Origin: Prorocentrum cordatum
Taxonomy: Eukaryota
Reading direction: 5' to 3'
Assembly (NCBI GenBank): GCA_963575745.1
Contig: CAUYUJ010000118.1
Location: 62,001-117,991, forward strand
Length of the DNA: 55,991 nt
The stretch's first letter is position 1. Each line of letters starts with the position of its first letter. This document shows positions 479 through 53,981 of this stretch, in pieces. The notes below the pieces were generated by a model that had not been told where the DNA came from, did no database searches, and was given only the letters and a program-made list of their open reading frames with translations. The translations under genes were made by a program, and so were the position numbers.

Positions 479-3400
479 TCACCTGCCAAGTTGTACGTGT
501 ATACACATCTCGGCAATGCCATTGAGAAGAGAATGTGCAGCTGCCAACTCAGCCTGTGTGATCGTGCAATGGCTAGGGATCATGAAACCTCTGCGGCCAA
601 CTCCAGGGTGCCATCCACCCTGCACAAGTCCAGGGGGAAGCTGGTGAGGAGGAAGAGAGGGAACAAGATAAACATCAATAACCCAGCCACACGAGGTGCC
701 ACGCTCACACCGCCCACCGTCAAAAGCTCCTCTAAGTGCACGAACAATATAATGACCCGATCTAATATGATAAAGAGTGTTATGATTCCAACGAACATCA
801 GAAGTTACTTTACCCTCACGTGCAAGATGTGTCTCATAGTCCGCCTCATCGTTGCCCTCCCTATACACCCATTTCCACATATCCCTTCCCACTTCAGCCG
901 TGACAAGATGATGGTCCTCACTCATTCTGTGGAGGCGGTTCTGCATACCCTTGATCGTGCGGCGGTATACTTCATTATGACAGCGATATCTTCCATTAAG
1001 CCAGCGCACAACACACTGGCTATCCCCACGGAGCTCCAAGCCATATCAACCCCCTTCCCCACGCCAAGTGGTTTCATCATCATTTATCGCGGCCAGTCGT
1101 TTCGCCACCCGTTCATTTTCCCGTCGTTGCTGCTCCTCAGACTTCTCCTCCCCCTTCTCCTCCTGCTTGAACTCACCCGTGAAGGGATCCCGAAGAAGGC
1201 AGAACTCGAGAAGATCATCCAAGTCCAGGGCGGCCAGGGTACCCACCAGGAAAGAACGCCAGCCAGTTTCATGCCAGACCATCGTGCGATCCCAATGAAC
1301 CCCGCGCGTGTGCTCGAAGACCTCGAACCAAGGCCTGAGTCCCGTCAAGACTCGATGACGACAGGTTCTAGTAAACCTTCGGCCCCCAGGGAGAGCTCTA
1401 ACATGTACGTCGCGCTGCTCAGTCCACTCCCCCGACGCGTGCATCATCGTCAAGGCGCTCTGCATACTGGCAGTGGGCAATCCTCCTTCCTCCTCCCGTG
1501 CATAGGTACGGCGTACCCGCTTACGAACAGGCTCATGTACATGTTGTGAATCGTGATGCTCATATGCCGTGTTCTCCGATATACGTCTGCGAACTGATCT
1601 ACTTTCCAAGGAAGATGCGCTCTGTGCCTTTCTCCTACACGAACTGTTGAGCTGTCTGGCATTCGGGGTAGGCGAGGGAACCGATAACTCCAAGAAACGC
1701 TGCGAACCACCAAAAATATCAGGATCTCGTGGCTCATGATAAAGAATGCCCTGACTGAGTGCGTCCTCATCCACCCGACTATGTTCCTCATGGATTGTGC
1801 TCACAACATGTTTGGCGAAGAGCCACTGGCGATGAAGGGCGAGCTGGACCATCGAAGGCTTACGGGCCCACTTCAATAAGCGACGGCCACCCTTAATCCT
1901 CCTGCCCCAGTACTCTCCCCAGGACTCCGTGATCTTCTTTTTGAGACGTCTCATGGTGGACAAGAAGTTGCCTTCAGCTGCATGTATCTGTTGGAGACTA
2001 CTCGAATCCAGAGTCGTACCCTCCAAGCCGTACAGAAAGCAACTTCTGACCCTGCTATCATAACGCTGAAACTTACAACGAAGCGGAACCACGGGCGACG
2101 AGTAAAAAGAAATCTCACTCATGAAGACCCTCCGTGCCTTCTCCAGTCGGTGCTTAATGTCGTCATGATCCTGAAATCGTACATCCAATAGCGTGCCGAG
2201 AACCTCCATCCTCTCCACCTGCCTCACTATCATCTCCTCCGAAGGGCCTGCGGCGCTCTGGGAAGCCCCACGAGAACGCTTCCTACCCATCTCAGCAGGC
2301 AGGAGCCCCGGTACAGGCAGGCGGATATCCTGCAATGGACCTTGAACGCCACAAGCCAAGAACTCCATCGAAGATGCTTTCCAGTTGAAACCGAAGCGGT
2401 GGAGGACCCCAGTCAAGTCCTCGAGCATATGAGTCAGTTCTCGCCTGGAAGCTGCTGCCAGCAAAATATTGTCTGCCCACAGCCAGTGGTTGACCAAGAG
2501 GTTGGATGCCTCATCAGTGAGCCTGACGCCGTATCCAGACTGCCTCCAACCTGCCGTCACTGGTGCAAGCATACGAAGTGTCTGGGCAACAAACAGCAAA
2601 GGCGCCTCCAAGGAGCCTGTACGTATGCAAGTATCCCACGAGATGGTCGTAGAACACTGTTGGAAGCTGATCTCTGCCGTATTACAAGCATAACTCTCAA
2701 AGACAGCATACACAAGGGCAGGATGGACATGATGGAATAAAAGCGCCTCTGCTGCACATCTCACCGTGAAATTATCAAACGCCTTTTCAATGTCAGCACT
2801 TGCAAGATAAAGACTCTCCTCCTTCCCCCACACAACGCCGTGTTGAGCAAGACGTTTGAGGGGGGCCGTGACCTCATAACATTTGTGCCCCGCAATAAAG
2901 CCATATAAGTTGCAACCTGGCGGCGCAGCCTGCCGAACGCGGTGCTCTAGAAGTACACATAGACAACTGCTATACCACTTACCAAAATGAGAAAGAAGTG
3001 AGAGGGCCCGCGTTTCTTCAAAATCACGAGCCTTGGGATTCTTAGGCATCAAGCATACCAAGATCTCTCTCCAGGACTTCGGTGAAACATGTTTCTGATC
3101 GTACAGCAAACGGAATAAGGTAAGTATGCGTCGGAGGGCTTCCCATGGCAATGCTTTGAGCACCGATGACGTCACCCCGTCTGCACCTGTTGCCCGTCCT
3201 TCCCTGGGTCTAGACCGTGCCTCCAGCAAGAGACCCATGTTGATCGGGTTGCGGTGGGGCTCTCCAAAGTCTCGCAGGGCCTTACACTGGTTCTTAAGCT
3301 CATCCAAGCACGCGTTGGTGTCCTGTCGGTGGGGATCGCTGGAGTACCTCAGGAGCCCATGCCGCCGAAGGCCCTCAATCCACTTCTCCTGGTCACGCGT

Positions 3401-4747
3401 GAGGACCCCGTCAACATACATGTGCGTAATAACAGGCCTACGACGGACACCATCACGAATACGGTAAAGCTCACATGCACGATCATGACGCTTACGTACT
3501 CGACGCCACCTCCTTGCTGTCCCCTTGTACTCCTCCTGGACTCTCTCGTACTCCTCCTGTCCCACGTTAGCCCCGCCATATCGTGCCACCCTCCACCTCT
3601 TCCTGACCTTAAAGAACTCCTCCTTTATCAGTAAATCCTCCTCCGAATATCTGGGATAGTCTGAAACAGGCTGACCACGGGAACGGGAGATATCCAAAGT
3701 CTCACTGGCACCCTCAAGTATACTCTGTGTCATGACCTCAAAACCTACATCCGTGTGGATCTGATTCACGAGCTCGGGCTGGCAAATCGCTCTCTCCAAG
3801 CCGGCTGTCTGCTGGAGCTCGAACCCTGGCTGAAGCTTCCAGGTCTTGAGCTGAGGCCGACGTCGATACCTCAACTGAGCATGCTGGGCGGGCATATCGG
3901 CACACAAGAGCTTGTGATCGCTAAACGTCCTTTCCGTCGCCTCCGACCGTGGGACCTGGGACGGCACAACCCAAGAACAAGTCACCTCTGGAGTCATCCA
4001 AGAAGCTGGGACCGCAAGATAATCATAGACGTGCTCGTATGTGCTCGAATTGTGTCTCCAAGTAGGCTGACGAGTCCCAAAAGTGTTGGCTAGCTGCAAC
4101 TTGAGGGCCCCCATGGTCTTCAGAAAGGCCCCCGAGTACATCTCCCTCATCCTGTTGGCTCTACTTTCGTCACCTCCACTAGACCTCCCCCTCTTACGTA
4201 TAGGCCCATTCACCGCCTCCCCCGTAACCTCCACCCCATTGATCCTGTGGTGCGGGAAAACCTCCACGTTGGCGTCAGCCGAGATAACAACCTCCTCAAT
4301 GTGAAATCGCTTTTTGGCCGCAGAGACATGTGCAACAAGATCCGATAACACGTCCGTATAGAGCTTGAAACTAGCAAGAAACCCTTCAGGAGAACGGCGT
4401 GCTTCACCCTGTGCACCCCGCTCAGACTCCTTATGAGGGAGATAGACAGAAACGAAGATGAGCTTGCGAAAGATTGCAATGACCCAGCGGCGACCACACA
4501 CAACATCGATAAGCAGATGTCTCCATACACCTCGGCACAAGATGGCAGCCCGTCTCCCCACGTTCTCCCCTTCATCTGCCGAGCGATGTATATCCCAACC
4601 CGCATCTGCAAGATCCAAGTCGTGTAAGAACTGGCTCTCTTGGACCCCGACGATGGAAATCTTTAATTCGGCAATGTGATTCATGCACTCGGAGGTGTAT
4701 CTTCCCAACCTCCGAACGTTCCAACCTCCAACAGAAGCTGGGCACCG
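479..4747 (-). CDS. ORF2 of element 1: APE endonuclease, reverse transcriptase, permuted RNase H; one in-frame TGA at 1046-1048
   Basis: APE motifs GWNV, VQE, VYLP, SADAN, YDY, SDH; RT motifs ATGADGV, ADIEKAFD, IRTGSLEAP, WADN; RNase H motifs GDS, YREGNDEAD, FDGG, TQAEL. Track ORFs 1046..4708 and 479..1039 are in the same frame. Confidence 0.92.
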
Positions 4748-5860
4748 TCACGAGCTGCTATTCACCTGCCTCTCCCAAGTCTTGCAGTCCAGATCTGGAT
4801 CGATGTGCTGGACCCGCTCGGACACGAACTTCCATCCCACGGTATCCGTCCACGTACCTACACACACTTTATCACTCTGACTATCCTTCTGCAGGTATGC
4901 CCAAGCCTTTGCAGGCCCTTCAGGCTCAAAAGTGATGAGAGCAGTGGCAACAGTCTTGAGCTTATGAAAGATCGCAGTCGCCTTGCGAGTCTCCCCCACT
5001 CTACGTCGGTCCTGTGGTGCCGGTTGGACAAACCAACCGAGGCGTCGATCTTTGCACGGTCCAAAACTATTCTGACAACCGACCAGATCAGGGCACGAAT
5101 TGGACCAGGCTGAGGCCCACTCGTTGCGTACTTCCCAGACCGTCTCTTTCGAAGTCCCTGGCATGAAGTATATGCGAAACTTGGTCACACCAAATCGATT
5201 GGAAGCGATATCCCCGTCCGTCCTACCTCTGTCGAAGATCTTAGTAACGTCACTCTCCCGTGCTTGCGATAGTGTGTACAACTTACCTATCATGTTCCTA
5301 ACCGTGGTGACCTGGATCTTGGCCTTATCTCGAGTTTCAACCTTTCGGGGGTCCTCTTGCGCGAAGCCGCTCACCTGGATCCAAGTCGGAACATGTGGTA
5401 CAAAGGGTCTCTGGAAGTCAGCAGTCCGAGAATCACGAGTAGATGCACCTCCCAGAGATGATGAATCTGCCCAGGGATCTCTAGAGTTCATCTGAGACTG
5501 AAGTGCTTTGATCTATTTCGCCTGGGCCTCCTGAGCTGAACGAATCTCCTGCACCGACGAAGCAATAGGGGCAACCTGCTCTGATACCCTCGTTTGAATC
5601 TGCTCTTTGATGTCAACAGAGTTCTGCATAAGCATCCTCTGCATATCTTCACGCATGGCATCGAACTGTGCACGGAGCATAGTGGCCAGATCTCCAGCAT
5701 CACCTCCACCTCCTCCACTACTACCACTTCCATTCCCACTAACTGCCCCACCTCCACCACCCTCGGCATCACCAAGAAGACGTCTATCTTCCAGGAGCTT
5801 CCTCTGTCGCTTCTCTCCGTTGCCCTCAGTTCCCATATCATCATCAGAAGTCGGAACCAT
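4748..5860 (-). CDS. ORF1 of element 1 (coiled coil plus conserved C-terminal domain); internal in-frame TAG at 5513-5515; frame open upstream to the element 5' end
   Basis: Track ORFs 5513..6523 and 4748..5491 share a frame (AK*IKALQSQMNS); RIYFMPGTSKETVWE matches RIYFKPGTSSEILWE (element 2) and RLYFQNGVTSDQLWD (element 4). First ATG at 5860. Confidence 0.8.
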
Positions 5861-6372
5861 CTTCCTCTTAGGATCACACTGCCCACAACTGGAAGTAGAA
5901 TACCGATAAGCTCGACAAGTAGGGCACCTACTAGCCTCCAGATCACGATAGTGTTCGTCCTCGAGTTCTTCAAGAAACTTATCCCAACCCCGTGAAGGTG
6001 AAAGTCGGTACGTGATGAAATCTGCTGCAACAAAAACGGCCAAAGTGTCCTTCTCAACTGCCAGAGCAAAACTGGTAAGTGCCGGGCTCCCAAGAGTATC
6101 ACAAGCAAACAGCAAAGATACAAGTGCAACAGGTAGCGGCCTTGCGCCTCCAGCGGCACGCGTGGGCTCACCCGCTAACACGAGCAGAGTACAAATGCAG
6201 CGACCTATGCGCAGCACGTCCAGGAGGTTGCAGCCGACGAAGTACACGAACTTATGGGCCAGCGCGCACCCACGCGCGCCCACGGCCGCCCAGGGGGCAG
6301 CCTGAGGAGACAGGCTTGAGGAGGCCCCCGACGGGCCAGGCCACCGCTGAGATCCCCGAGGAGGGACAGCGG

Positions 6373-9300
6373 CAACCTGGTCACCGCCGGGAACCTCGTA
6401 GAGCTCCTTGCTTGCACCCATGAGAAAGCTCAGGATCGAAGCGGAGAGCTTCTGGGAGCTTCCTAGAAAAACGTCAAATTGAGATTCTTCGGAGTCAACA
6501 TGACGTCGGTTCCGGGAAGTCAACTAATACAAACTGGCTCTAGAGAGCTGAGCTGCTGAGGAAACAAAGTTTATATGCCAATGCTCGGCGTAAAAATCTG
6601 CTTTCTCAAAATGAATTGTCAAATATCTTTCAAATCTGAGCAAAACCGACCCAAAGTCAACACTTTGTCCTTTCTGGTCGGCCCGACCAATGGGAACCGG
6701 CGGTAAACCGTCAACCAGGTTACCGCCGGCACCTCGTAGACCTCTTTTCTTGGACAGCGCTCCTCGGAACACATGAAGGAAGCTTCTGAAGCGAGAGCCG
6801 AAAAAATCGAAAAATCACGATTTTTCGGTTTTCATCCAAAGTCGTTTCCTCCAAGTGTTTTGATAGTAATACTGCACCTACGGACCTGAGAATTTGACTG
6901 GCAGACGCGGCATAACCCACTCCCCTCCCTCCCTCCCTGCCTGCTCACCGAAGAAGCTCATCAGATGACTCAGAAAAAACGCATTTTTTAGTGTCGATAC
7001 AAAGTCGGTTCCTCCAAGTGTTTTCATAGTAATACTGTCCCTAGGGCCATGAAAGATTAACCAGCAGGTGCGCCATAGCTTACTACAGGGAATGAACATC
7101 TCACTCCTGGAAACGAACTTCAACATTTGCCCCCCCAAAAAAAAAATGCACGGCGATCCTCGGAACACATGAAGAAAGCTTCTCGAGCGAGATACAACAA
7201 AAAAACGACAAATCACGTTTTTCTGTTTTATCCAACATCGGTTCCTCCAAGTGTTTTTGTAGTAATACTGCAGCTACGAACCTGAGAATTTGACTGGCAG
7301 ACGCGGCATAACCCACTACAGGTGCGAAAAATCTGCTCTCTCAAAATGAATTGTCAAATATCTTTCAAATTTTCGCAAAACCCACCCAAAGTTACCACAT
7401 TGTCTCTTTTGGTCGGCTCGGCCAACTAGCTCCACCCCGCGCCGGAATTCCTCTAGCTCATCGATGACGAAGAGCTCTACGAGGTACTAGCTCCACCCCG
7501 CGCCGGAATTCCTCTAGCTCATCGACTGGCGCCGGCGGTGAACCGTCAACCTCGTCACCGCCAGGAACCTCTTAGAGCTCCTTGCACGCATTGAAGTGCT
7601 CAGAATCGAAGCAGACAGCTTCTCGGAGAATTTCTCGAAAAAACGTCAACTTTGCATTTTTCGGTGCCACTGTGAGGTCGGTTCCTCCTAATTTTTCGAT
7701 AGTAAAACTGGCTCTAGAGAGCTGAGCTGCTCTGGGAATGAGTTTTATATGCCAATGCTCGACGTAAAAATCTGCATTCTCAAAATGAATTGCGGAAGAG
7801 CTCTCAAGCGCATCTGCAGCTCGAGTAAGTGGAAAAATCACCATCAGCTCGAAAAAAAAGGGTCGCATACGAATAGCTTTGCGGACCTAGCTCGGGTAGC
7901 AGACTGTGTTCAGAGCTCTAGATGCTCCAGCCTCCAGCCGAACGCCCCTGATGATGCTCGATGGGTTTCTGTGCGCTACAGCCCTGCAACTCTGCTACAG
8001 CTTCAGTTAAGTACAGAAGACCGACAGCGCCTGCAAAGAGAACTTGAAGAATACAAATAGTTTTGCGGACCTAGCTCGGGTAGCAGACCGAGTTCAGACC
8101 GCTCGATGCAACAGACGGACGCGCCTAATCATACATAATCCTCTCATGTGCGTACCAGCTCTGTAGCTATTCTGAATCGTGAGTTAAGGACAGAAAACCG
8201 ACAGCACTCGTCAAAATGACTCCAAGAATACGAATAGGTTTGCGGTCTCGAGATAAGTACAGAAAACCGTCAACACGTGTCAAGGACTCGAAACGGTCGA
8301 CGGTTCCCTCAAATCTTTTGATAGTAATATTGCAGCTACAAACCTGGCAATTTCACAGCCGCGCGCGCAATAACCCACTACAGGCGGGAAAAACACCTGT
8401 TCTTAAAACGAACTTTCAAATTTTACACACACATAGAAAAACCGACCCCAGGTTATCACATTGTCTCTTGGGGTCGGATCGGTCAACTAGCCCCACCCTG
8501 CGCCGAATTCCTCTTAGCTCATCTTACCGAAGAGCTCTACGAGGTATATCTTTCAAATCTTTGCGAAATCAACCCAAAGTTATCACATTGTCCGTCCGGG
8601 CCGGGTCGACCACTGGGAGCCGGCGGTAAACCGTCAACCAGGTTACCGCCGGGAGCCTCGTAGAGCTTTCCTCGCACAGCGCTGCTCGTAACACGCGGGG
8701 AATCTTCCTCACACGCGAGCTGAAGACTCGAAAAATACTTCAAGTGTTTCGATAGTAATACTGCAGCTACGAACCTGAGAATTTCACTGGCAGACGCGGC
8801 ATAACCCACTACAGGTGCGAAAAATACCGGTTCTCGAAACGAATGTTCAAATCTCTCAGAAAGTTTGCCCAACCGACCCAAAGTTCACACATTGTCCGCC
8901 CGGGCCGGGTGGATCAACTGGAAGCCGACGGTAAACCGTCAACCAGGTTACCGCCGGGGCCCTCGTAGAGCTCTTTTCTCGCACGGCGCTCCTCGGTACA
9001 GACAAAGGGAGCGTCTGGAGCAAGACCCGAAAAACTCGAAAAATCACGTCTTTATGTTTTTATCCAAAGATGGTTCCGCCAAGTGTTTTGATAATAATAC
9101 TGCGCCTACGGACCTGAGAATTTGACTGGCAGACGCGGCATAACCCACTACAAGTGCGAAAAATCTGGTTTCTCAGAATGAATTGTCAAATATCTTTCAA
9201 ATATTCGCAAAACCGACCCAAAGTTACCTCTGGGCGCCGGCGGTAAACCGTCAACCTTTCTTACCGCCGGGAGACTCGTAGAGCTTCCTTACCATATATT

Positions 9301-11503
9301 ATGTCCACAGAATTAGCAGAGAACAAGTAGTTGATCTCAGGCTTCTAGATATACTTCACTGTTGCCCAGAGCTCTAGATGCAACAGATGCACGCCCCTGA
9401 TGATGTGAATCGATTGATGTGCACACGAGCTCTGTAGCTCTCCTACATTTCGAGTTACGTACAGAAAACCGACAGCATCTGTCAAGGTGACTCGAATTAT
9501 ACGAATAGTTTCGCGGACGTAGCTCGAGTAGCAGACCAAATTCAGGCCTCTAGATGCAACAAATCAACGCGCCTCATGCTTTGGGATGGGTTTTTGTGAG
9601 CATCAGCTCTGTAGCTGTCCTACAGCTCGAGTTAACTCCAGAAAACCAACACCACCTCTCAGGATGACTCGACTAATACGAATAGGTTCGCGGGCTATCT
9701 CGGGTAGCAGACCGAGTTCGGACCTATAGATGCAACAGATGAACGCGCCTGATGATTTTCAATGAGTTCCTGTAAGTATCAGCCCTGTAGCTGTCCTACA
9801 GCGTACAGGAACCCGACAGCATCTGTCAAGATAACTCGAATAATACGAATAGCGTTGCGGACCTAGCTCGGGTAGCAGACCGAGTTCAGACCTCTGCATG
9901 CAACAGATCGACGCGTCTGATGATTCGGGATGGGTTTCTGTAAGCTTCAGCTCTGTAGCTGTCCTACAGCTCGAGTTAAGTACAGAAAACCCACATCACC
10001 TGTCAAGATGACTCGAATAATACGTATAACTTCGCGGACCTAGCTCGAGTAGCAGACCGAGTTCAGGCCTCTAGATGCGACAAATGAACGTCTATGATCA
10101 TTTTAAATGGTTTCCTGTAAAGTATCACCTCTATAGCTGTCCTGCAACTCAAGTTAAGTACAAAAAACCGACAACGCGTATCAAGATGACTAAAAACTGG
10201 GCGCCGGCGGTAAGCCGTCAACCTTTCTTACAGCCGGGGGACTCGTAGAGCTTCCTGACCATATATTATGTCCAAAGAATTCGTAGAGAACGAATAGTTT
10301 TTCAGCCCGAGCGCTGATAGGAGACTGATCTGAGGCGTCTAGTGATATCCCATTGCTGTGCTCAACACTTCTATAGCTCATCTGCAGCGTGTAAAAAATA
10401 CCATTAGGGAGAAAATAGCAGAGTACGAATCCGTGTTTGGCGTCTGCGCTCACAACAGACCCAAAATAAGCGTCTAGATGCTTTGCGCCTCACGATGTCC
10501 TTCTGATTTTTCGGCCGAAGAGCTCCCGAGCTGCTCTGCAGCTCGAGCTCAGCGAAGAAATTCACCATCATTTGGAAAAAAATGTCGGTCGAATACGAAT
10601 ATTTTTGTGAAGCTAGCTCGGGTAGCAGTCCGAGTTCAGACCTCGCGATGCAACAGACGAACGCTCCCAATGCTTCTGCATCAGTTTCTGTGCGCACCAG
10701 CTCTGTAGCTCTCCTACAGCCTGAATTCAATACAGAAAATGGACAACATCTGTCAAGATGACACGAAGAATACAAATAGTTTTGCGGACCTAGCCCGAGT
10801 AGCAGACCCAGTTCAGACTTCTAGATGCAACAGACAAACGGGCCTGATGATTCCGAATCAGTTTCTGTGCGTATGAGCTCTGTAGCTCTCCTACAGCCCG
10901 AGTTACGTGCGAAAACGGACAGCACCTCTCAAAATGACTCGAAAGATACCAATAGTGTCGCGGACCTAGCTCGAATAGCAGACCGAGTTCAGACCTCTGG
11001 ATGCAACAGACGAACGCGCGTGATTATTGTGCATCGGTTTCTGTGCGCATCAGCTCTGTAGCTCCCCTAGAGCTCGAGTTAAGTACAGAAAAACGACAGT
11101 CCTGTCGAGATAACCCGAGCGATACGAATAGACCTAGCTCGAGTAGCAGACCGATTTCATACCTCTGCATGCCACAGGCGAACGCGCCTGATGTCGCCAA
11201 ATCGGTTTCTGCAATTACCGGCCATGTAGCACCCCTACAGCCCCAGTTAAGTACAGAAAACCGACAGCACCTCTCAAGATGACTCGAATAGTACGAACAG
11301 TTTCGCGGACCTAGCTCGAGCAGCAGACCGAGTTCAGACCTCTGGATGCAACAGACGAACGCGCCTGATGATCTTGAATCGGTTTCTGTAACCATCAGCT
11401 CTGTAGCCCCTCTACAGCTCGAGTTAAGCTTTTTTATAATTTATATTAATATGTATGTATTAATATATAATAATAATGATAAAATTTATCGTAAACCCCC
11501 CCC

Positions 11504-11541
<38 letters not shown>

Positions 11542-14500: not shown

Positions 14501-15928
14501 CGGTTCTCAAAAGGAATTTTCAAATTTTGCAAAAAGATTGAAAAACCGACCCCAAGTTACCACATTGTCTCTTATCTTAAGGTCGCGTCGGCTCCCGGCG
14601 AGAGCTTCCTTGCCATATATTATGTCCAAAGAATTGGCAGAGAACAAATAGTTTCTCAGCCTCCGCTGATAGCTGACTCGAATACAAAACTGAATTCAGA
14701 GCTCAAATGATGTTCAATCGATTGATCAGCATCTGTCCAGATATCTCGAATAATACGAATAGGTTCGTGGACCTAGCTCGAGTGGCAGACTGAGTTCAGA
14801 CCTCTAGATGCAAGGGATCAACGCACCTGATGATTTGGGATCGGTTTCTGTTAATGGGAGCCGGCGGTAAACCGTCAACCAGGTTACCGCCGGGAGCCTC
14901 GTAGAGCTCTTGTCTGCACGACGCTGTTTGGAACACATGGGGGAAGCTTTCTTACGCGTGAGCTGCAAAGCCTTAAAAATTATGTTTTTCAGCTTTCACC
15001 GAAAGTCGGTTGATTCAAGTGGGGAACCGACAGCACCTCTCAGATCACTCGTATAATACAAATAGTTTCGCGGATCTAGCTCGAGTGGCAGACCGAGTTC
15101 AGAGCTCTCGATGGAACAGACAAACGCGCCTCATCATTCTGAATCGATTTCTGTAAGTAGCAGCTCTGTACCTCTTCCAAATCTTGAGAAGTACAGAAAA
15201 CCGTCAACGCGTGTCAAGATGCTCGAAACGGCCGACGGTTCCCTCAAGTCTTTTCATAGTAATATTGCAGCTACGGACCTGAGAATTTCACTGGCAGACG
15301 CGCACGGCGCGGGCGGTAAACCGTCAACCTTTCACCGCCTGGGGACTCGTAGAGCTTCCTGACCATCTATTGTGTCTGTAAAAAGAGCAGAACAAATAGT
15401 TTTCAAGCTCGAGCTGATAGCAGGGTGATTTCAGGCGTCTAGTGATATCCCATGCTGGAAGGAAGTAGCAGAGTACGAATCCGATTTTGGCGTCTGCGTT
15501 CACAACAGACTCACACCAAGCGTCTAGATGCTTCACGCCTCACGATTTCCTTATGAGCTTTTGTCCGCTCGAGTGAAGAAATTCACCATCATTTGGAAAA
15601 GGAAAAAATGATAGCAGACCACGTTCAGACCTCTCGATGCAACAGACGCTCGAATAATACGAATAACTTCGCAGACCTAGCTCGAGTAGCAGACCCAGTT
15701 CAGACCTCTGGATGCAGCAGACGAACGCGCCTGATCAGTCTGCATCAGTTTCTGTGCGTATCTGCTCTGTAGCTACCCTAGAGCTCATAACTCGAACAAT
15801 ACAATAATGTCGCGGAGGTGGCGGGTAGCAGACCGAGTTCAGACCTCTAGATGGAACGGACGAACGTGCCTGATTATTCTGAGAAGATTCCTATTAACTT
15901 GGTAGCGTCCATCTGGCGTCCACTTGGT
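6373..15928 (-). repeat. Nested mosaic of Helitron2/HINE-like non-autonomous elements
   Basis: Terminal hairpin motif near 6697, 7533, 8620, 8925, 9237, 10205, 12355, 13497, 13916, 14861 and 15311; opposite-end AGCTCTACGAG near 7473, 8533, 12121, 13371 and 13421; internal ~177-bp repeats. Confidence 0.8.
11429..11540 (+). other. AT-rich insert ending in C9-A36
   Basis: Replaces the usual TACAGAAAAC between GAGTTAAG and CGACAACGC of the 177-bp repeat. Confidence 0.6.
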
Positions 15929-15981: not shown

Positions 15982-18900
15982 CTAGGGCCCCTCACGCCCT
16001 CTCAACCTCTTTGGGGTTGGAGGCCCGAGGATCTCAGAGATAATCTGCCGAACACCTTGGAGCAGGCGTTCACAAGCTGTGAGCTCGCTATCAGTAACAG
16101 TGGCCCCCAGAGGGAGTAAAGAAGCCTCCTGGAAAACTCGTCGCCAGTGGTTGCCCCCAAATGAGACCTCCACATAGCAACCTAGAGCAGAGCCTTCAAC
16201 ACTCACGCCACCGTCCCATCCTCCACGGATACGTATGATACAATGTCTCTGTTGTCGTAAATATCTGAAGTCAATCCATCTTCCCGTCCTTCCCCTCCTC
16301 GCCTCCCAAGTCAACTCATCCGCAACACAATTGAACTCTCTGTAGATATGCTTCCACGGACCCGCCCCTACAGTGGCACACCTGATGTCGTAATCCTCCG
16401 CCAGTTGATTCATATCGTTTTGTAGGCCGTGCACTCTCCTGCGGTACGAACGATCACGGCATTCCCAGATCCCTCGGGCCCAGTTCACCACACACATACT
16501 ATCACCAGTCATTTCAACCAGCAATGAGCTCTCCGAGCCCTCCTGCCAGACAGCTTCGTTGTTATATCCGTGGGCAATCCTACGAGCGAGCCTGTCGGAG
16601 TCCTCAGGGGAGTCCCACGTATCCACAGGGCAAGGAGCACAGGGCGGTTTCCTGAAGATGGGCTCCCATCGAGGCTGTATTTTTTCATGCACGCAACTAC
16701 ATTCCACCAGTCCGTCGCATTCCACTTGATGCTGAACCAGCGTAAATTACCACTCGCCGCCAACATAAGACAATGCCAACTGTCAGTGCTTGCATGCGCT
16801 CTCCCTCCCACTCTCCTCGTACCTCCCCTCCTCCTGGCTCCCGTGAACATGGATACAAGTGTGTCCCTCCGTAGCGACCATTCCCCCGCACAGTGTAACA
16901 TGGCCTGCAGCGTCTGACGCCAGGCTCGTGCCCCACGGACGTCCGTGGAGGCGAAGGCCCGATCATGAAACTGGGCCAGCTCCAGCGCAAACTCGAAATT
17001 GGCTCGGACCACCTTCTCTAGGAGACTGCAGTGGCCAGCCTGCAAGAACAGCTCGTATGACTTCGGTGTGGTCCTGTCCCTGAACTCCTCCCACGTCTCC
17101 TCCTCCCTCTTGTGTAATCCTCGCATACCGTTGAGACACCTCCCCTCCCAGACCTTAATCCTCTCCAGCAGTCGTAGATTGCACGGCCAGCCTATACATC
17201 CGTGGTACACCACAGACTGCACACGAGCGGCATACCTGCGAAACTTCTCTTTGAGTGAGACCGATCTGGAGCGATAAAACTTGATGTCAGCAAAATAGGC
17301 CTTCCTCCCTTTCTCCAGTCGATGATACAAGCCGTGATATCCCTTGATTTCCGAGCTGAACTTCACTCCTAGTACCTCCACCTCCTCCTTCCTCGGCATT
17401 ACGACAGTCGAGCGCAAGTGCTCTGGGAGATCCTCATCTCCAGAAATCGCACAGGTGGCTGGCGAGAGCGTGCAGAGCAGCGGCGGATCTCCATCTGTGT
17501 ACGTCTGGCCAAAAAGTACATACGCCAAAGAGTCCTCCTTCCAGTCCATCCCTGCCCGTCTGAGTGTTACCGTCATCATACCGATCATCTGTTGTAGCTG
17601 GAGCTGCGATGCAGCACAGAGCGTAACATTGTCCGCCCACAAGAAATGGTGTACAAGAGCACCGTCCGTCCCATCCCCTTCCAGTCGGACACCGTATCCT
17701 AAGGTGTCCCAAGTCTGAATCACAGATCCCCAGATGGCCTCCAAGACAATATTGAAAAGTATGGGTCCCTCCTTACCTCCCGTTCGGACCGATTTGTTGT
17801 ATCTCACCTCATCGCCGCACACGTTCTGAAACTCAAAGGTAGCAATGTTATCCAGCATGGGCTCCACAATGGCTCTGATGAGGCACACAGGGTACTTAAG
17901 GTACAGCATGGCCTTGATGATAGTGTGCAGTGTGACATTATCGAAAGCTTTGTGTATGTCCAAGACTCCCACGTGCATAGACTCCGCCTTCCCCCACACA
18001 TTTGCATGTCTAGTAAGATGTGATAGTGGTGCCGTGACGTTAGTAACCTTCTGATCCTTCTCAAATCCGTATGTGCACAACCGTCGGTTCACAGGAAATG
18101 CATCAATAAACTGCAACACACATGCCATGTACCATTTACTCATCACACTGATCAGGCAAATCCCTCTGGTGTTGGAGAGTCGTGTAGCATCCCGCATCTT
18201 CGGCACAAGTTGGATACTGAGCTGCCTCCACGTCTCAGGGCTGGAGGCTCCCTGCTCGAAAATCCTCTGGAAAGCACGCCGCACAAACAAGAGGCTCCTC
18301 CACGGCAACTCACGAATGACCTCAGCAACGACTCCATCGCTGCCGGGTGCCGTGCCAGGCTTCAAAGACGCACGAGCCTGCATGAGCATGCCCATCGTGA
18401 TGACTCTTCCCTCCACCCCACGGTCGTTGTGTCTGAGTTCCTGAAAGGCCTCCAAAGTCCGTTTTTCCTCCTCCGAGTTCGTGTAAGACGCCGTCGCATA
18501 CCTAGTGATCTCCGTACTCCACCTAGTCCTGTCCATTGTCAGCACACCCTCACACTCCAGCTCCTTGAGGATACACCGTGAGGTCTTACTGGATCCCCTG
18601 TGGTCCTGCAGGAGTTGGTTCCTCCTATGCTGTCTCCTAAGGGTCTTCCTCCTACGCAGCAGTTGTTTACGAGTATTCCCAAGGGCCCCACGCCTGATGG
18701 CAGACTCCACCTCTATGAGCTCCCTGGGCCTCTGAATAGGTTTGCAGTTGGGGCGCCCCTTAGTGTGGTCCACAAGCTTTGCCGTCTCCAAGAGTACCCG
18801 TCCGACCTGCTGCAGGTCCGTCCCTACCGTGTCCGTTGCAAGTCCCTCAATCGACACATCCGCAAGCACACGAAACATGTTCCTCGCCGTGTCATCCGTC

Positions 18901-19763
18901 GGCTGCCAGCCAACCATGGACACAGGGCGGGGTGGCAAAGCTGGGCGCCTGATCTCCGTCGTCTTGAGATTTACCCAGACCAGAGCGTGATCACTATAGG
19001 CACTGGCTTTTGCACGTATACCTGGCGTAGCTTTGATGGGTTCCACAAACTGGACCTGGCATCTCATTTCCTGGTGAGCTCTTGCCTCATCCGCGCACCA
19101 ACGTGTAGGGATGAGTATATAGTCAAGCACACGCTGCACATGTGTGGAACAGTACGGTATATGTGTGATACGTCGGTCTCCATATGTGTTCGCCGCACAG
19201 ATCCCCCAAGTACTCATGAACCTCATAAGCATGTCCCTCCTCTCTGCATGGTAGTTCGCCTCCTCCCTCCTCCCGTCCACCTGCATAAGACCTCCTCCCG
19301 TCATTCCCAGCATATCTGGTTCAAGTTCCGTCTGAGCATCCATCCCCACCCATGGTATGACTCCAGCCTGTGTAGTTTGAAACATAGTAACACTGCACTT
19401 AGTAAGTACATCTAAATATTCCCCCAAGTGGTCCACGTCACGCATCACACATGGTAGATACACTGGTGTAACTAGAGCACCCCTGAATTCAACACACGCA
19501 AATCGTACCCCACTCCGTCGAGCAATCACATGTGGTGCCCAATCCCTGCACCATGCAACCGCCGCCTTGGAGCAGGAGCTATAGTGAATCTCCCATCCGC
19601 ATCTGTTAAAAGTATTTGCACTGGTATGCTCACACTCTTGCAGACACACCGTTTGAATTGACCTGGCTTCACATGCAGCGACCAGGTTGGGCACTTGACC
19701 GTCGGATATTTTCTGCACATTCCAGGTTGCGACCACGGTCTCAGTCGCAGCCCTACCGCCCCG
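15982..19763 (-). CDS. ORF2 of element 2: APE-RT-permuted RNase H; one frameshift near 16680
   Basis: TWNV, LQE, VYLP, LDY, SDH; APGSDGV, LDIHKAFD, VRTGGKEGP, WADN; GDS, HIYREFNCVAD, WDGG, TDSEL. The frame most plausibly changes at an A6 run (16680-16685). Confidence 0.92.
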
Positions 19764-21134
19764 TCAATGATTCGGGCACCGTAGTGTCTGAAGAAACTGC
19801 ACCTGATTAATATCGGGCTCAACGTGTGTCAAATTATCACCATAGAGGTTCCATCCTTTTGTCGGTCCCCATTCTGCAATCAAAGTCTTTTGTGTAGTAT
19901 CAGCATTCGGCATATACCACATGTATGTCATTGGCGGACCCGTCTCACCTCGAAGAATAGCCGTCGCATTTTTCTTGATATCAGAAAATAGTGCTTGAAA
20001 CCGTCCTACCGCCCGAACATGTTCTATCTTCCATGGCTGGCATTCAACTTGAAATCGCACGTTGGGAGGCAATGAAGTGAGACCCCGTCTGTAGTCATTC
20101 TCCCACACACGTTTCGCTTCCCATAGGATCTCAGAGGATGTACCTGGCTTGAAATAGATCCTACCCCTCGTGTACGGCCAATATCTACCAGTATTCTCCT
20201 GAACCGCCCGATCCAAGTCCAGTGCCGCCCTCTGTGTAGCATCAATTTGTTTAGAGTCAATAAGACCATTCATCGCCGTCGTCAGTGCCTCCTGTGAAAG
20301 AGCCTCCCGCTGACGTATCTCACGGTTCCTCCATCCCTCCCTTGAAACCCATCCCTTGAACTCAACATAACGTGGATTCCAAGCAGGATCGTGCCTGTCC
20401 GTACCCGCCTTCGTGGATCCACTTGCTACAGACAGCCCGTCCCCCTGCTTGAGCTTCTGAACTTCATTGGTGAGGTCCTGGATCGCCGATTCTGTTTTTG
20501 ATACCCTGGAGTCCAGAGATGTTTTGAGACCGTCCATTTCCGTACGAATAGAGTTCCTGAACGATTGCATGTCTGCCGTCATAGTCTGTTGTCCCGTCAT
20601 GATGGAACGAAACATCTGTTCAATGTCCAGACCAGCTTCCTGGGCAACCTCATTCGCCCCCAACGTTTGTCCCGCACCTCCTCCTTCTCCTTTCCCTCCT
20701 CCTTTGACATTACGAGCACGGACAGCTCTAGCAAACGCCCCACCCCCATCATCAATTGTCATGTCCTGGCCCACCGCATGCAAGCCTGGAGCACCTGGAA
20801 CTGAAGAACCTGCTGGCATCGCTGGTGCAACACCTGAAACTGAAGAACCTGCTGCCGCCATCTTCCTTTTGTGGCTGCGCAAGATATTGAAATCGTAACC
20901 TTCACCCTGCACGAAGTGGTTACGCAAGATATGGAAATCGTAACCTTCACCCTGCACAAACGGTACGGTTGGTGTGAGCGATGGCACACAAATAACAGCT
21001 CCCCTGTCACCTCGAGGTGTCCCGACCTGTCTAGCAAGATAGTCCCAGTCCGCGTGACTGAAGTCGGATCCCCAGCACTCCGTCGTTCCAAGAGAGAGGA
21101 AAAGATACAATTGCAGCAGTAGCAATAGCCGCAA
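19764..21134 (-). CDS. ORF1 of element 2 (uninterrupted; first ATG at 20861)
   Basis: 456-aa ORF; heptad-like segment followed by VEFKGW, PWKIEH, GETGPP and GW motifs shared with ORF1 of element 4. Confidence 0.88.
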   Translation of the reverse strand: MRLLLLLQLYLFLSLGTTECWGSDFSHADWDYLARQVGTPRGDRGAVICVPSLTPTVPFVQGEGYDFHILRNHFVQGEGYDFNILRSHKRKMAAAGSSVSGVAPAMPAGSSVPGAPGLHAVGQDMTIDDGGGAFARAVRARNVKGGGKGEGGGAGQTLGANEVAQEAGLDIEQMFRSIMTGQQTMTADMQSFRNSIRTEMDGLKTSLDSRVSKTESAIQDLTNEVQKLKQGDGLSVASGSTKAGTDRHDPAWNPRYVEFKGWVSREGWRNREIRQREALSQEALTTAMNGLIDSKQIDATQRAALDLDRAVQENTGRYWPYTRGRIYFKPGTSSEILWEAKRVWENDYRRGLTSLPPNVRFQVECQPWKIEHVRAVGRFQALFSDIKKNATAILRGETGPPMTYMWYMPNADTTQKTLIAEWGPTKGWNLYGDNLTHVEPDINQVQFLQTLRCPNH

Positions 21135-25300: not shown

Positions 25301-25369
25301 TTTTCGGACCTAGCTCGGCTAGCAGACCGAGTTCAGACCCCTGCAGCGCTGCTGAAGCCTGCCAGAAAC

Positions 25370-25411
25370 GCTTCCATGCGTGCCTGCACGCGTGCAGGCA
25401 CGCGTGGAAGC
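25370..25411. repeat. 42-bp near-perfect palindrome
   Basis: GCTTCCATGCGTGCCTGCACG|CGTGCAGGCACGCGTGGAAGC with one mismatch; second copy at 21417-21458; collapsed copy near 38669-38697. Confidence 0.85.
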
Positions 25412-31776: not shown

Positions 31777-31808
31777 TGGGCGCCGGCGGTAAACCGTCAA
31801 CCTTTGTT

Positions 31809-48760: not shown

Positions 48761-51700
48761 TTAGGTAGGTCGTAACAGAGCGCACGCCACCTTAGCAGCA
48801 GCTCTCGTCAGGGCAGCGCAGGCAGCTAGTTCACAGCAGGTTACCGTGCTACCAGGAGGCAAGCTCATCGCCTCCTCGGCCACATCGTGCCAATGGAAGC
48901 TGTGCGAGCTGGCGCAGGAGGAAGAGGAGGAGGAGGAGGAGGAGGAGGAGGAGATGGGAAAATCAACCTGCACGCTGAACCCCTACCTACAACGCCAATC
49001 TGAAGCCACCACCCACCTCCACATCCTTCATTACTGACACCCCCATCGAATGCACCACGGAGAGCAGTCTTACGAGTACTGAGGAACTTATCATATGCAA
49101 ACCAGCGAGTAATAGTTTGGCCACCTCTGCCTCCCACGACAATTTATCCGCACGCTCATTACCCTCACGAAAGAAATGCTTATACAGATTCTGTCCCGAT
49201 GCAGGTGAGGTCAGTCCCCATCCAGACAGCATCGATACCGTATTTTGTAGTGTTCCCACCAGTCGTACATACTGCTTGTTGCGAATCTGCCACTCACCAC
49301 ACATCCAGGTTACAACAGTCTTACTATCTCCCAAGATCTCCATCCCAAGACGCTCAATATTCTCACACCTCCACTCCGTTTCATTCTCAAAATTAGCGGC
49401 AATACGTTTGCTCATCCTCTCATTCATCTCACTCTCCCCCTCCTCCTCTGCCTTCACATGTCTCACACCAGGCGGCCTGGGTAGAACAAACAAGTCGAAC
49501 AAGTGTTGCATACCAATCACAGTCAGCAAATGCTTGCAGTATTTCTCACGGGACCCAGCGGAACTGTCGAATGAGAGGTACCACTCACACCCAAAGAGAT
49601 CGCACAAGCACCAGTCCCACGCAGTATGTCCACGGGGGCGGCCGCCTATGTTCATGCGTGTCAGCTGCTTCCTATCTTTTACAGGCATTGCTAAAATACA
49701 TGTGTCACGATGTTCCGTCCACTTCCCCCTTCCATGTAACATGGCCAGCCTAGATATCATCCATTCACGTGACATGTCCGACTCCTCAGGTATGGCAGGC
49801 TGATCATCTGGTGTACGCCGGCGACAGCCACTCGACATCTGGGATATCTGAGATACATGATATGTTTGAGAAGTCGCCGCCGCCGCCATCGCCCGAGTTT
49901 TCCTCTGACGCCGATTTGGTACCGTCTCTCCCTCCTCCTCCTCCGTGTGTGTTGTGTATCTCCTCATACGAATACTTGCAGCAACTGAGACATCCTTAGC
50001 CCAATCCCAACAACGAAATATCCATATCTGCACCGCACTTCGGAATCCAAGTCCAGCAAAACTCTGTCGTCCCGCTTTGTATCGCCTACGTTGAAACTCA
50101 GACCAGCCTTCAGTTCTCCGCTTGCGTATACCTGACATTATAGCTAGAAATCTGCCTTCAAAATAGTGAACAGCAGCAATGGTAGAATAGTCGGGCGTTC
50201 TGCCCTCACAGTTGAATAATAATGCAGCAATCACTTTAGCTTGATAGCGAGTAAATCTTTCAGCCAAGTCAATCCCAGAACAGCGGTAATACGCGATTTC
50301 CCAAAGAACATCCTCTGGGCTTTCTGGAGCATGGCCTCTGAGTCCGAGTGGTCCTTCCAGGTCTCCTCCAGAGTGGCTCCCAGGATCTCAAACGCTTGAA
50401 CACGCGGTAGGACCACTTCTCGGGTCCCAAGAGCGGCGTCACTAGGCGGCACCAGCACACGGATATCCTGCTCAGGGGACGGCGGGATGCCAGGCGGCGC
50501 ACCAAAGTAAATATACATCAAAGATTTCGGCTTCCAGGTCATTCCTGCATTCATCAGGGGGATACTCATGTCACGCACCATCAACTCAAGGTCAGTGCGG
50601 GTTTTCGCATACAACAAAAAATTATCTGCCCAGAAACTGTGGGTCATACGCTCACCATTGAACATGCGCTCATCATTTTCCAATTTGATGCCGTACTGCG
50701 TTTCTTGCCTCCATCTGTCGATAACATCTCTCCAGAGTACAATAGAAACTGCCAGAAAAATCATAGGTCCCTCTACTCCCCCCGTTCGAATAGATTTGTC
50801 CCAATAGACCGCTGACGATGCCTCGATGCCCTCGAAGCTGGCCACGCACTGATTATCCATCATGGGTTCAATCAACGCCACAATGAGATCAGCAGGTATG
50901 TCAAGAGCACGAAGACAGCGCATGGCGAGGCACGGAGTAACATTATCGAAAGCTTGTAAAATATCAAGGTTGGCAAGCCACAAACTGTCTCCTTTGCCCC
51001 AGACAGCGGAGTGCTGGCTGAGCCTCTTGGCAACGCTGGTGATTTCCGATGTTTTGCGTCCCGATCTGAATCCGTACAGGCATACATAGTGTCGGTGCTC
51101 CTCAATCCTCTTCTCAATCAACATCACAATACATGTAATGTACCATTTCATAAGACACGACTGTAGACATAGCATACGTGTATCTGTCAAATGTTGTATG
51201 TCCATTTCTTTTGGCATGAGTGTGGCAGCTAGTTGACGCCAACTGTCGGGACAACATAACCTTCTGGAATACACACCTTGGAAGCTCACCAGAACACGTC
51301 GCACAGATGCCCACGAGAGCTGTTTCAACATCGTGACAGTCACGTTGTCGGGACCTGGGGCCTTGCCCGTGGACAGCTTCGCCCTCGCCCGCAGCAGGAG
51401 CGACATCGAGAACACCTCTGAGGATCCGCTTCCCGAACATAGACCACGCAGCGACTGAAGCTCACGCAGGGTCACCTCTCTGGCCTCGGGGTCCTCCACC
51501 TTAGACTTCATGTGCCCCAATATCTCGTCCCCCCACTCCTCGCGGTTCTGAGACTCCATCCCGTTGGCAAGGATCAACGTCTCCGGCTTGGCCCTCCTCC
51601 TCCTCCTCGTGTTCATTTCCGTCCTCCACCTCTGTACTCTTGCCTCTAGCCTCCTTCTTTCTCTCCTCACAATCTTTGAGCACCGTTTAGCCTCCTCTCT

Positions 51701-52938
51701 ATCCCCCCGACGAAGAGCTTCACGTTTACTTGCCTGGGCGGCCCAGTGGATCTCGGATTTCTTTGGCGCATTATTCCTGGGATTGATATCTTTCTGGGGG
51801 GTCTCCTCGGCGGCCTTTATGAGGTCAGGTCCCAGCGTATCCAACATCTCCTGTCGATCCTCTGGGTCAGCATTTTCCTGGCACAGAGCACGGTAACGAC
51901 TGCCCCGATCGTCCATGTTCTTCGCAAACTCCAGCTGTGACACCGGTTGCAAGTGATGAATTTTCGAGCAGGCTGGGTCCGTCTCTTCGCAGACGGTGCA
52001 CAAGACAAGCGAACAACTATGCAGGCGTGGTCAGACAGCGCACGCTCGTATCTGCTGCAAGGGTGCTCCGTCCAGGCGTGGCCGACTTCCGAAGGCAGCA
52101 TCCAGCCAACTGTGAGCTCCTGCCTGTGTAAACGACGGCTGACCCCAACATAGTCGAGCACCTTCTCCACCCCCGTACCTGATTTGAAAGTAACCCTCCT
52201 CTGCCCGAATGTGTTCTCCATCCTGATGCCCCAGAGCCCGCAGAAGTCCAGTAGGGCCCTCCTCATCGATTGCAACCTAGACGCCCGTCGAATTTCGAAG
52301 CCCGAGACAAGCCTATGAGGTCTGGCTTTGCGTGCACCACGTTTTGTTAGAGTCATATACGGATTACCGTCATCCGCTCCCTCCTCCATCCCAGTATCAA
52401 TCTCCGTAGACCCCCCAGCAATCCCAGACGCCTCCAGAAGCCCTGATCCAGTAACTCTAAAGCCGTTGACCTCCGAATCTGGCTCGAGTTCGACGTTAGC
52501 ATCTGTCAAGAAGACCAGGTCCTGCGGCTGCTTCGGGAACTTAGACCTATGTGTGCGAAGCACTCGGGATATATCAAACAAAATCTGTTCATACACATCA
52601 TGCTCATACTGTTCTTCCGTAAGGGCATTGATACTCTCATGTGGCATATATGCAACAATAACCGTAACACTAGAACAACTACAAATGACAAAACCTTTGC
52701 CACGATATGTGGCTCTGAGCGAGTCTCTCCAAGACTTAGACATAATCACCGCAGCCTTCCGACAAGTACTCCGAAAAATTGTGTAACCTCGCATGCTGAG
52801 ATCACGAACTGAAAGGAACTGACACTCGCACAACCCCGCGAGTCCCACATCTAAACGACGTAGTGAAATAATTATGTCATGGCCGTTCTCTGCACCTGCC
52901 CGACGCACATTCCATGACGCAATGGTGTCGTGGCACCT
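48761..52938 (-). CDS. ORF2 of element 4: APE-RT-permuted RNase H, broken by four single-base frameshifts
   Basis: SWNV, LCE, AYMP, TDAN, LDY, SDH; APGPDNV, LDILQAFD, IRTGGVEGP, WADN; GDS, HFFREGNERAD, FDGG, TCCEL, spread over track ORFs 51817..52908, 50231..52003, 48987..50267, 48865..49137 and 48761..48973. Confidence 0.88.
48916..48953. repeat. (GAG)n microsatellite within the RNase H coding region of element 4
   Basis: About 12 GAG units with one GAA interruption. Confidence 0.85.
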
Positions 52939-53981
52939 CTAGTTCGTACTGGAAATCCTCGCTCGCAACTCATCAATGTTGATCCCTGGCTCAAGCTGAT
53001 TCATTGCACGAGTGATCTCCCAGCCATTCTGCAGAGAGAACTTTGCCACAATCTTCCCTGGAGGTGGTAAGTGGTCACTGGAGCCCCACATGAACGTAAT
53101 CGGTGGTCCCGTCTCAGCCCTGAGATTCGAATGATGCTTCTTGAAACTCTTGAACTTGGCCTGAAAGATCCCAGCGGCATCCAGATGGGGCTTCTTCCAG
53201 GGGGGGGCCTCCACGTGTACCTTGAGGGCCCTGGGAGCGTGCTGGAGTTTGTTGTCGGCGATCGCGGCAACGAGTCGACGACGAAGATCCCACAGCTGGT
53301 CACTGGTAACCCCATTCTGGAAATAGAGCCGAGCACGCGAATACCCCCACGCCTCTCTACCTGTGAACCTCTTGGATTGGTTCAGGTCCAGAAACTCCTT
53401 CACACCACTGAGCCATTCTCCAGCCAGGACCTCATTCAGCAGTGAATTCAACGCCTGCTGCGATAGCATCTCCTCCTGACGCTTCTCTGCATCTCTCCAG
53501 TCCGTCACCCATCCCTTGAGCTCGACGATCGATGGGGTGAAATTCTGCACTGACTGCCGAGTTTCCGCCGAGGACGCTGTCGTAGAGGTGCCTGCTCTGG
53601 GGGCCCCACCTGCAGGAGCCTGCTGGAGCTGGATTATCCGGAGCCTCTGATCCTCAACCTTCTTAGTAATAGCATCTATGTCCGTCATCGCCTGCTGTAC
53701 ATTTTTCTCCACCGAATCAACACGAGCATTGAGCTGGGTGCCGAGATCCGTGATGCTTCGATGTGTTGATTGGAAGCCCTCCGTCATCTTACCTCCCAGA
53801 GATGCAACAAGCGTCGTGATCTTGTCCATCCCCTTTGCCATGGCCTCCTCGAGCCTTCAACCGTCTGAAGTTTGACCCGTTTTCCCTCTGGGACCTCCTC
53901 CTCCTTGGCTCCTGGAACGCGCATATCAGTGGCGTCCATAGCGAAAACCTCGGGGACCGCAGCAGCTGATGAGGCAGCCAT
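52939..53981 (-). CDS. ORF1 of element 4 (one frameshift near 53850; frame open upstream to the element 5' end)
   Basis: VELKGW, PWKKPH, AETGPP and NGW motifs match ORF1 of element 2; first ATG at 53981. Confidence 0.82.

Follow-up and report, generated by a model that had tools for sequence, protein, structure and literature searches.

A stretch of 55,991 nt of the Prorocentrum cordatum genome (contig CAUYUJ010000118.1, positions 62,001 to 117,991; called the window below and numbered from its first letter) carries three retrotransposon copies, elements 1, 2 and 4, all on the minus strand. In each of them the second open reading frame (ORF2) follows the first (ORF1) in the same frame, directly past a single stop codon and with no start codon of its own. 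The same arrangement is found in a fourth family, represented by the metagenome contig L001, and at three of these four junctions the stop is UGA followed by CGG. We consider it moderately probable, judging from sequence, that type II programmed readthrough at UGA-CGG yields a fusion of the ORF1 and ORF2 proteins (ORF1p and ORF2p).

ORF1 and ORF2 share a frame across one stop codon

According to the listing of open reading frames, the stop-to-stop frames of ORF1 and ORF2 adjoin with a spacer of 0 nt in all three elements. ORF2 is in the ORF1 frame at all four junctions (elements 1, 2 and 4 and L001), for which the chance probability is (1/3)^4 = 0.012, or 0.037 if the first junction is taken as given. 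The linker from the stop to the Trp of WNV, the first endonuclease motif, measures 8, 13, 8 and 12 codons in elements 1, 2, 4 and L001, respectively. No in-frame ATG lies between the stop and WNV at any of the four junctions, and an AUG that overlaps or adjoins the stop, as in a SART1-type restart, is found at 0/4. Around the element 1 stop all three frames lack an ATG from -60 to +60 nt, and no in-frame near-cognate start codon lies between the stop and WNV. The ATGs near the other stops are out of frame only, at +46 in element 2 and at +26/+31 in element 4; the nearest one in L001 is out of frame too, with no other nearby.

A later start of ORF2 would truncate the catalytic fold. This is because an ORF2 profile, A3, which was made from six sequences (two from the window and four from the database), aligns in the PDB with residues 6-706 of human L1 ORF2p (E = 2.6e-18), that is, with the APE endonuclease and the reverse transcriptase (RT) up to motif C. 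At this start of the APE fold human L1 ORF2p has its initiator Met and five residues. Position 1 of the Pfam profile Exo_endo_phos, whose matches are just below the cut-off (23.6 against 24.5 bits for the database relative P0014; E = 0.0094 for element 2), aligns at residue 12 of element 2 ORF2. Thus, the endonuclease fold starts about 11 residues past the stop.

Type II readthrough is defined by a UGA with CGG or CUA as the next codon, and a stem-loop is often present 6-12 nt farther on (PMC11166343). The UGA CGG context is present at three of the four junctions (element 1, element 2 and L001), and the UAG AGG of element 4 lies outside it. Just 51 of the 383 arginine codons in the element ORFs are CGG (13%), yet CGG is the next codon after all three TGA junction stops. 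At the codon usage of the elements themselves, at least three CGG among four post-stop arginine codons would occur with P = 0.0085. CGG is absent after the three terminal ORF2 stops and after the two stops private to element 1. Since CGG is rare among arginine codons and follows every TGA junction stop, the bias points to selection on the nucleotides rather than on the amino acid. A preliminary description of the window had already given the stop codons, their positions and their letters, the shared frame with no ATG before WNV, and a conserved 3' context of stop-(C/A)GG-(T/G)GC. Our reading of the minus strand, the abutting frames and the ATG search agree with it on each of these points (CGG, CGG and AGG, then TGC, GGC and TGC), and the frame is conserved in a further family, L001, which brings the total to 4/4.

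None of the three window copies is intact (0/3), so the junction stop must be shown to be a feature of the families and not decay. It falls at a homologous alignment column in elements 1, 2 and 4, whose proteins are just 22-33% identical in pairwise comparisons. Across the four families the stop, the frame and the context are kept at ORF1 identities of 22-48%. L001, the single locus from a profile scan, has an ORF1 that is 45% identical to that of element 2; its junction reads ...AKLNAPN, TGA, CGG TGC and goes on in the same frame as RCQNAAELAVATWNV. L001 adds an independent fourth case of this junction design. Profile scans of viral contigs and prokaryote genome contigs gave no relatives.

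A HMMER search of 1.84 billion representative proteins with element 2 read through its stop gave 3138 matches at E <= 0.001, and the best 150 of these were examined. Among them, 16 match the C-terminal domain of ORF1 and 10 match the N-terminal half of the endonuclease. Seven of the 16 are without a natural C-terminus (six fragments and P0029), and all nine that reach it (P0002, P0003, P0032, P0059, P0105, P0110, P0126, P0136 and P0139) stop within about 4 residues of the window ORF1 ends. No protein in which a sense codon joins ORF1 to ORF2 is found among the best 150 of the 3138. P0029 (159 residues), the sole protein among them to match both parts, has the ORF1 C-terminal domain joined straight to the endonuclease interior, an internal deletion having removed the junction. 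On the ORF2 side, three of the six database N-termini (P0004, P0012 and P0049) begin after the first endonuclease strand, as expected where a usable start codon is absent.

The element 2 family can also be followed in other sequencing runs. The only differences between the window and the contigs that bridge the stop in runs X1 and X6, from two studies, are at 19599, 19644, 19651, 19692 and 19743, so TGA CGG GGC is kept and is the family consensus. The family is present in eight runs at no less than half of the sampled words, and its depth is high in two out of four runs examined.

Near-identical copies of the region 16400-21200 occur in runs X1-X12, which comprise marine, freshwater and 'urban' metagenomes and three coded organisms, and the summed contig depth reaches the hundreds in X6 and X8. 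The host seems to be widespread, and the element 2 family is high-copy and young.

The reading frames of this family bear the mark of purifying selection. The element 2 copy and the run contigs differ at 152 sites, of which the best-supported 40 were analysed. Synonymous changes make up 23 of these 40, where 27% would be expected given the ORFs and the transition-transversion mix in the data (P = 5.7e-5). Of the 40, 27 lie in the ORF2 and RNase H frames and 16 of these are synonymous, as is the sole listed change in the linker. Provisionally, this excess argues that ORF1 and the AUG-less ORF2 of the element 2 family are kept by selection. If ORF2 is kept by selection, it must be translated.

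Predicted hairpins start 2-14 nt past the stop at all four junctions. The first 45 nt, compared with other 45-nt segments of the same element, lie at percentiles 0.04, 0.22, 0.14 and 0.05 in elements 1, 2, 4 and L001 (Fisher P = 0.013), where the length of 45 nt was picked after three lengths had been viewed and at 60 and 80 nt element 1 alone stands out. Its 45-nt segment has z = -2.2, in the lowest 4%; those of element 4 (z = -1.1, 14th percentile) and element 2 (z = -0.6, 22nd percentile, not distinctive) are weaker. In element 4 a second stem that could form a knot was spotted by eye. These predictions hint that the hairpin may assist readthrough.

Proposed readthrough and competing explanations

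We propose that ORF2, which would have no initiator of its own, is reached through ribosomes that pass the ORF1 stop. A small fraction of ribosomes would decode this single stop by a near-cognate tRNA, at UGA most likely one for Trp, Arg or Cys, and continue in frame. The signal would be the stop with its 3' neighbours, which read UGA CGG (U/G)GC in three of the families and UAG AGG UGC in the fourth, and a downstream hairpin a few nt past the stop may help. In the fusion a linker of 8-13 residues would run directly into the first endonuclease strand. Expression of this kind would set ORF1p in large, constant excess over ORF2p and would keep ORF2p attached to the ORF1p assembly, on its own RNA. 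The logic would be that of Gag and Gag-Pol.

Several points weigh against this proposal. The junctions number only four. UAG AGG of element 4 is no described leaky context, and the element 4 copy is decayed. The stem positions differ between the families, element 2 is unremarkable, and folds of 123 nt past the stop have no strong structure in common (z = -1.8, +0.2 and -1.1). In human and rat L1, too, the two ORFs are in frame and separated by stops; a termination-reinitiation that does not depend on the AUG is described for them, and a fusion protein is not seen (PMC2241872, PMC5972666). Three more distant ORF2 relatives (P0005, P0007 and P0014) have, as predicted proteins, a Met 19-56 residues ahead of the first APE strand. 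Judging from these predictions, the wider clade may start ORF2 independently, and the lack of an AUG may hold for a subgroup only. The preliminary description had favored programmed readthrough and had pointed to the RNA past the stop. On readthrough, its premises, L001, the nine of nine ORF1 ends, the family-consensus stop, the selection and the CGG bias speak for it, and the TAG AGG context and the weak structure speak against it. On the RNA, the short hairpins are there at 4/4 junctions, and a strong fold common to the families is not.

The main rival is AUG-independent termination-reinitiation, which we regard as unlikely. Here some 40S subunits would stay on the RNA and restart within a few codons at a non-AUG codon, which would give free ORF2p; the shared frame would be an inherited accident or a by-product of a restart codon that adjoins the stop. 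The elements are L1-like in their ORF2 profile and ORF1 fold, and for L1 ORF2 an unconventional termination-reinitiation is described, as is stop-start coupling for SART1 (PMC5972666). The in-frame spacer stops of rat and human L1, where a fusion protein is not detected (PMC2241872), fit reinitiation as well, and SART1 coupling also requires structure directly past the stop. However, the frame is kept at 4/4 junctions despite linkers of 8, 13, 8 and 12 codons, which reinitiation does not require; in rat L1 the spacer length itself varies, from 58 to 60 nt (PMC2241872). Two coupling signals are described, a stop-restart overlap with structure downstream of it in SART1 and, in L1, sequences that lie inside ORF2 (PMC5972666); CGG after UGA is part of neither and fits readthrough. 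Moreover, an AUG at or beside the stop is missing from every junction, and element 1 offers no in-frame near-cognate codon before WNV. More widely, we know of no reinitiation signal that has CGG after the stop.

A second alternative, which we rate as very improbable, is that there is no dedicated mechanism. ORF2 would then be effectively untranslated, ORF2p would come in trans from other elements, and the stop would be a frozen relic. This would agree with the defects of all three window copies and with the distant relatives that appear to have a Met-initiated ORF2. It is opposed by the synonymous excess (16/27 in the ORF2 and RNase H frames; overall P = 5.7e-5), by an ORF2 that is open over 1084-1233 codons in two families, and by the conservation of stop, frame and context in four families at 22-48% ORF1 identity.

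We give hardly any weight to removal of the stop at the RNA level, whether UGA or UAG were converted to UGG by adenosine-to-inosine (A-to-I) editing, a very small intron were spliced out or ORF2 had a separate, trans-spliced message. A single A-to-I change would turn either stop into UGG, as happens with UAG at the amber/W site of hepatitis delta virus, and the element 1 stop codon is base-paired in the 123-nt fold. But ADAR-type editing is not known to occur outside animals, protein homology reaches both sides of the stop and leaves no room for an intron, and a separate ORF2 message would still have no AUG.

Further candidates are rejected: reassignment of the stop codon by the host, by ORFs of 1084-1233 codons without another stop and by the extra stops of element 1, which lie in other contexts at positions where relatives have sense codons; selenocysteine, by the TAG of one family; independent nonsense decay, by the same column in four families, 9/9 database ORF1 ends and the consensus in two other runs; and an intron spanning the stop, by homology that abuts it from both sides.

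The elements and their surroundings

The elements are, by their protein sequences, L1-like long interspersed nuclear elements (LINEs) of a divergent branch. ORF2 matches Pfam RVT_1 past the cut-off, with E = 1.2e-7 in element 1 and E = 1.7e-13 in element 2. In the PDB the A3 profile also matches R2 proteins (E = 1e-13 to 1e-12). A C-terminal RNase H-like domain follows, with a sub-threshold match to Pfam RVT_3 (E = 0.014, element 1). RT motif C reads (W/Y)-A-D-N in all six aligned ORF2 sequences, with the second catalytic Asp replaced by Asn, and the usual non-LTR (long terminal repeat) motif with two aspartates (F/Y-x-D-D) is not found in them. Such an xADN motif is unusual in an RT that appears to be active and is present in high copy.

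Pfam gives no match for ORF1. The AlphaFold model of element 2 ORF1 has a predicted local distance difference test (pLDDT) score of 74 overall and of about 90 for residues 160-360, and comprises a 60-residue helix (80-139) followed by an alpha/beta domain. When this model was compared with the PDB by Foldseek, the top match was the human L1 ORF1p trimer (E = 6e-3, probability 0.94). In VIA-align, L1 ORF1p scores Z 5.6-5.7 over residues 97-362, and RRMs score Z 5.0-5.5, a range in which unrelated ferredoxin-like domains tie with them. The model is thus suggestive, not conclusive, of an L1-type ORF1p with a coiled coil and an RRM-like domain. A protein similarity search with element 2 ORF2 gave no match, and with ORF1 it gave P0003 alone, which is the L001 ORF1. 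A Protein Atlas look-up of ORF1 returned unnamed clusters only (score <=0.90, low recognition). The features of the three copies are collected in Table 1.

Table 1. Coordinates of the element features and of a dispersed segment in the window
Feature	Coordinates	Strand	Remarks
Element 1, open frames, stop-to-stop	4748..5512 / 1046..4747	-	
Element 1, ORF1 from first plausible Met	4751..5860	-	coiled-coil part and RRM-like C-terminal domain; from translation and homology to ORF1 of elements 2 and 4
Element 1, private in-frame TAG	5515-5513	-	inside the coiled coil; sense codon in relatives
Element 1, junction stop TGA	4750-4748	-	in frame between ORF1 (...ERQVNSSS) and ORF2
Element 1, 3' context CGG TGC	4742..4747	-	Arg-Cys if read through; stop, then RCPASVGGWNV
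Element 1, predicted 9-bp hairpin	4721..4741	-	begins 6 nt past the stop; 3' arm enters the Trp codon of WNV
Element 1, ORF2, 1233 codons	1049..4747	-	APE endonuclease and reverse transcriptase; WNV 4723-4715
Element 1, RT motif C	2400-2500	-	aligns to FADD of human L1 ORF2p
Element 1, private in-frame TGA	1048-1046	-	just 5' of the RNase H-like domain; sense codon in relatives
Element 1, RNase H-like part	479..1048	-	domain 1045-482, terminal TGA 481-479; ORF2 frame kept
Element 2, open frames, stop-to-stop	19764..21134 / 16509..19763	-	
Element 2, ORF1, 365 codons from Met	19767..20861	-	disordered N-terminus, helix 80-139, RRM-like domain, C-terminal domain
Element 2, junction stop TGA	19766-19764	-	follows ...LRCPNH; unchanged in bridging contigs of runs X1, X6
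Element 2, 3' context CGG GGC	19758..19763	-	stop, then RGGRAATETVVATWNV
Element 2, predicted hairpin, 6-7 bp core	19724..19753	-	begins 10-14 nt past the stop
Element 2, ORF2 (APE-RT), 1084 codons	16512..19763	-	WNV 19724-19716
Element 2, RT motif C	17500-17650	-	aligns to FADD of human L1 ORF2p
Element 2, RNase H-like domain	15982..16746	-	different frame in the window copy
Element 4, open frames, stop-to-stop	52939..53856 / 51817..52938	-	
Element 4, ORF1 N-terminal part	54551-53787	-	other frame; open
Element 4, ORF1 body, 305 codons	52942..53856	-	30% identical to element 2 ORF1
Element 4, junction stop TAG	52941-52939	-	follows ...ARISSTN
Element 4, 3' context AGG TGC	52933..52938	-	stop, then RCHDTIASWNV
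Element 4, predicted 8-bp stem	52897..52935	-	begins 3 nt past the stop (+7)
Element 4, ORF2, three frames	48987..52938	-	52938-51820, 52030-50234, 50387-48990; APE, RT and RNase H-like parts; WNV 52914-52906
Recurrences of the ~55-residue segment	22166-22322, 24157-24311, 28759-28913, 39060-39220, 39586-39642, 45334-45417, 46589-46681, 55918-55983		

Element 1 (479-6523, minus strand) has three in-frame stops, and the stretch of about 5.4 kb that runs from ORF1 to the RNase H-like end is free of frameshifts; the stops other than that at the junction resemble private nonsense mutations. Compared with the contigs of other runs, the window copy of element 2 has a frameshift near 16680 (indel at 16679), and element 4 has several frameshifts. 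A fourth, fragmentary copy at 32008-33808 on the minus strand was found by tblastn with the ORF2 of elements 1 and 2. It has the RT part only, in an open frame of 532 codons, without ORF1 or a junction.

The LINE copies are embedded in satellite-like DNA, all three on the same strand and flanked by satellite repeats. A repeat of about 177 bp forms arrays between the elements (7800-15900, 22800-39900 and 46000-48400), with dozens of copies at 60-90% identity. A separate tandem array at 40430-45350 has a period of 352 bp and 13 copies, many of them 95-100% identical. The GC skew is negative throughout the window. A translated segment of about 55 residues upstream of element 1 ORF1 (6360-6523) recurs at about 8 other places in the window; it is probably a further dispersed repeat, which lies at the 5' end of element 1 or outside it. 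A search for a 15-nt relic motif of the dinoflagellate spliced leader, with up to two mismatches allowed, gave 0 matches.

Relation to known systems and significance

Of the precedents on which the preliminary description had drawn, the following are borne out by the literature: UGA-CGG as an alphavirus readthrough context in Venezuelan equine encephalitis virus, gag-pol readthrough of a gammaretrovirus in the UAG of Moloney murine leukemia virus (MoMLV) (both PMC13517186), and reinitiation or coupling in L1 and SART1 (PMC5972666). The stop between nsP3 and nsP4 of alphaviruses and that in segment 9 of Colorado tick fever virus are, like those here, UGA with CGG. In the latter virus UGA CGG UGU gives Arg-Cys, with UGU where we find UGC (PMC13517186). 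In these type II viruses a polymerase-type domain lies in frame downstream, likewise here, and the stem-loop starts a few to 16 nt downstream (PMC13517186, PMC11166343). They differ in that their readthrough is measured and their stem-loops are extended (68-177 nt), whereas ours are short predicted hairpins in a cellular retrotransposon, with UAG AGG in one family. MoMLV shares with our elements an RNA-binding structural gene, one stop and an in-frame enzyme gene, and makes its fusion at a low ratio (PMC13517186). It belongs to type III, UAG with a purine-rich spacer and a compact pseudoknot 8 nt downstream, whereas element 4 has UAG AGG UGC and a knot seen by eye only. The structural proteins of LTR elements and LINEs are unrelated.

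Mammalian L1 is the closest relative in sequence and fold. In human L1 and the rat L1-3 cDNA the two ORFs are in frame with stops between them (PMC2241872). There the spacer is 58-63 nt with two stops, ORF2 has an AUG and is translated by termination-reinitiation, and antibodies show no fusion (PMC2241872, PMC5972666). In SART1 of Bombyx, with its UAAUG, translation of ORF2 depends on the ORF1 stop and downstream structure (PMC5972666). The AUG of SART1 overlaps the stop and its ORF2 is in another frame, whereas our elements have no AUG and one frame. Unlike L1, they have one stop, a spacer of 0 nt, no AUG, UGA CGG, an RNase H-like tail and xADN.

The nearest non-LTR precedent would be a plant one. 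Noma, Ohtsubo and Ohtsubo in 2000 reportedly found that in some Arabidopsis ATLN LINEs, of the L1 clade, orf1 and orf2 are in frame across one amber codon (UAG), and suggested suppression. We know of no experimental test of it. Our full-text searches, which included this plant precedent, found no paper on readthrough of the stop between ORF1 and ORF2 in a non-LTR element. Because of the reported ATLN precedent, and because readthrough is well known, we judge the design to be a variant of something known.

How ORF2 of a LINE is translated from a bicistronic RNA, and how ORF2p is kept low relative to ORF1p, is only partly understood even in human L1. If our proposal is true, one leaky stop would solve both problems, and it would provide a simple model open to reporter assays. 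There would be a natural ORF1p-ORF2p fusion, relevant to cis-preference and to RNA-protein particle stoichiometry, and the UGA-CGG readthrough signal would be extended from RNA viruses to the mobile elements of protists. In addition, gene callers split or truncate these ORF2s, as in the three of six database N-termini that lie past the first endonuclease strand, so annotation pipelines should know the arrangement. More tentatively, and with rather less than an even chance in our estimation, the elements may belong to an undescribed deep L1-like branch of aquatic protists, marked by the RNase H-like tail and the xADN RT, in which ORF2 has no initiator and ORF2p is made only as a UGA-CGG fusion. 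If true, Gag-Pol-like expression would here be obligatory in a non-LTR clade for the first time, by convergence with retroviruses and alphaviruses.

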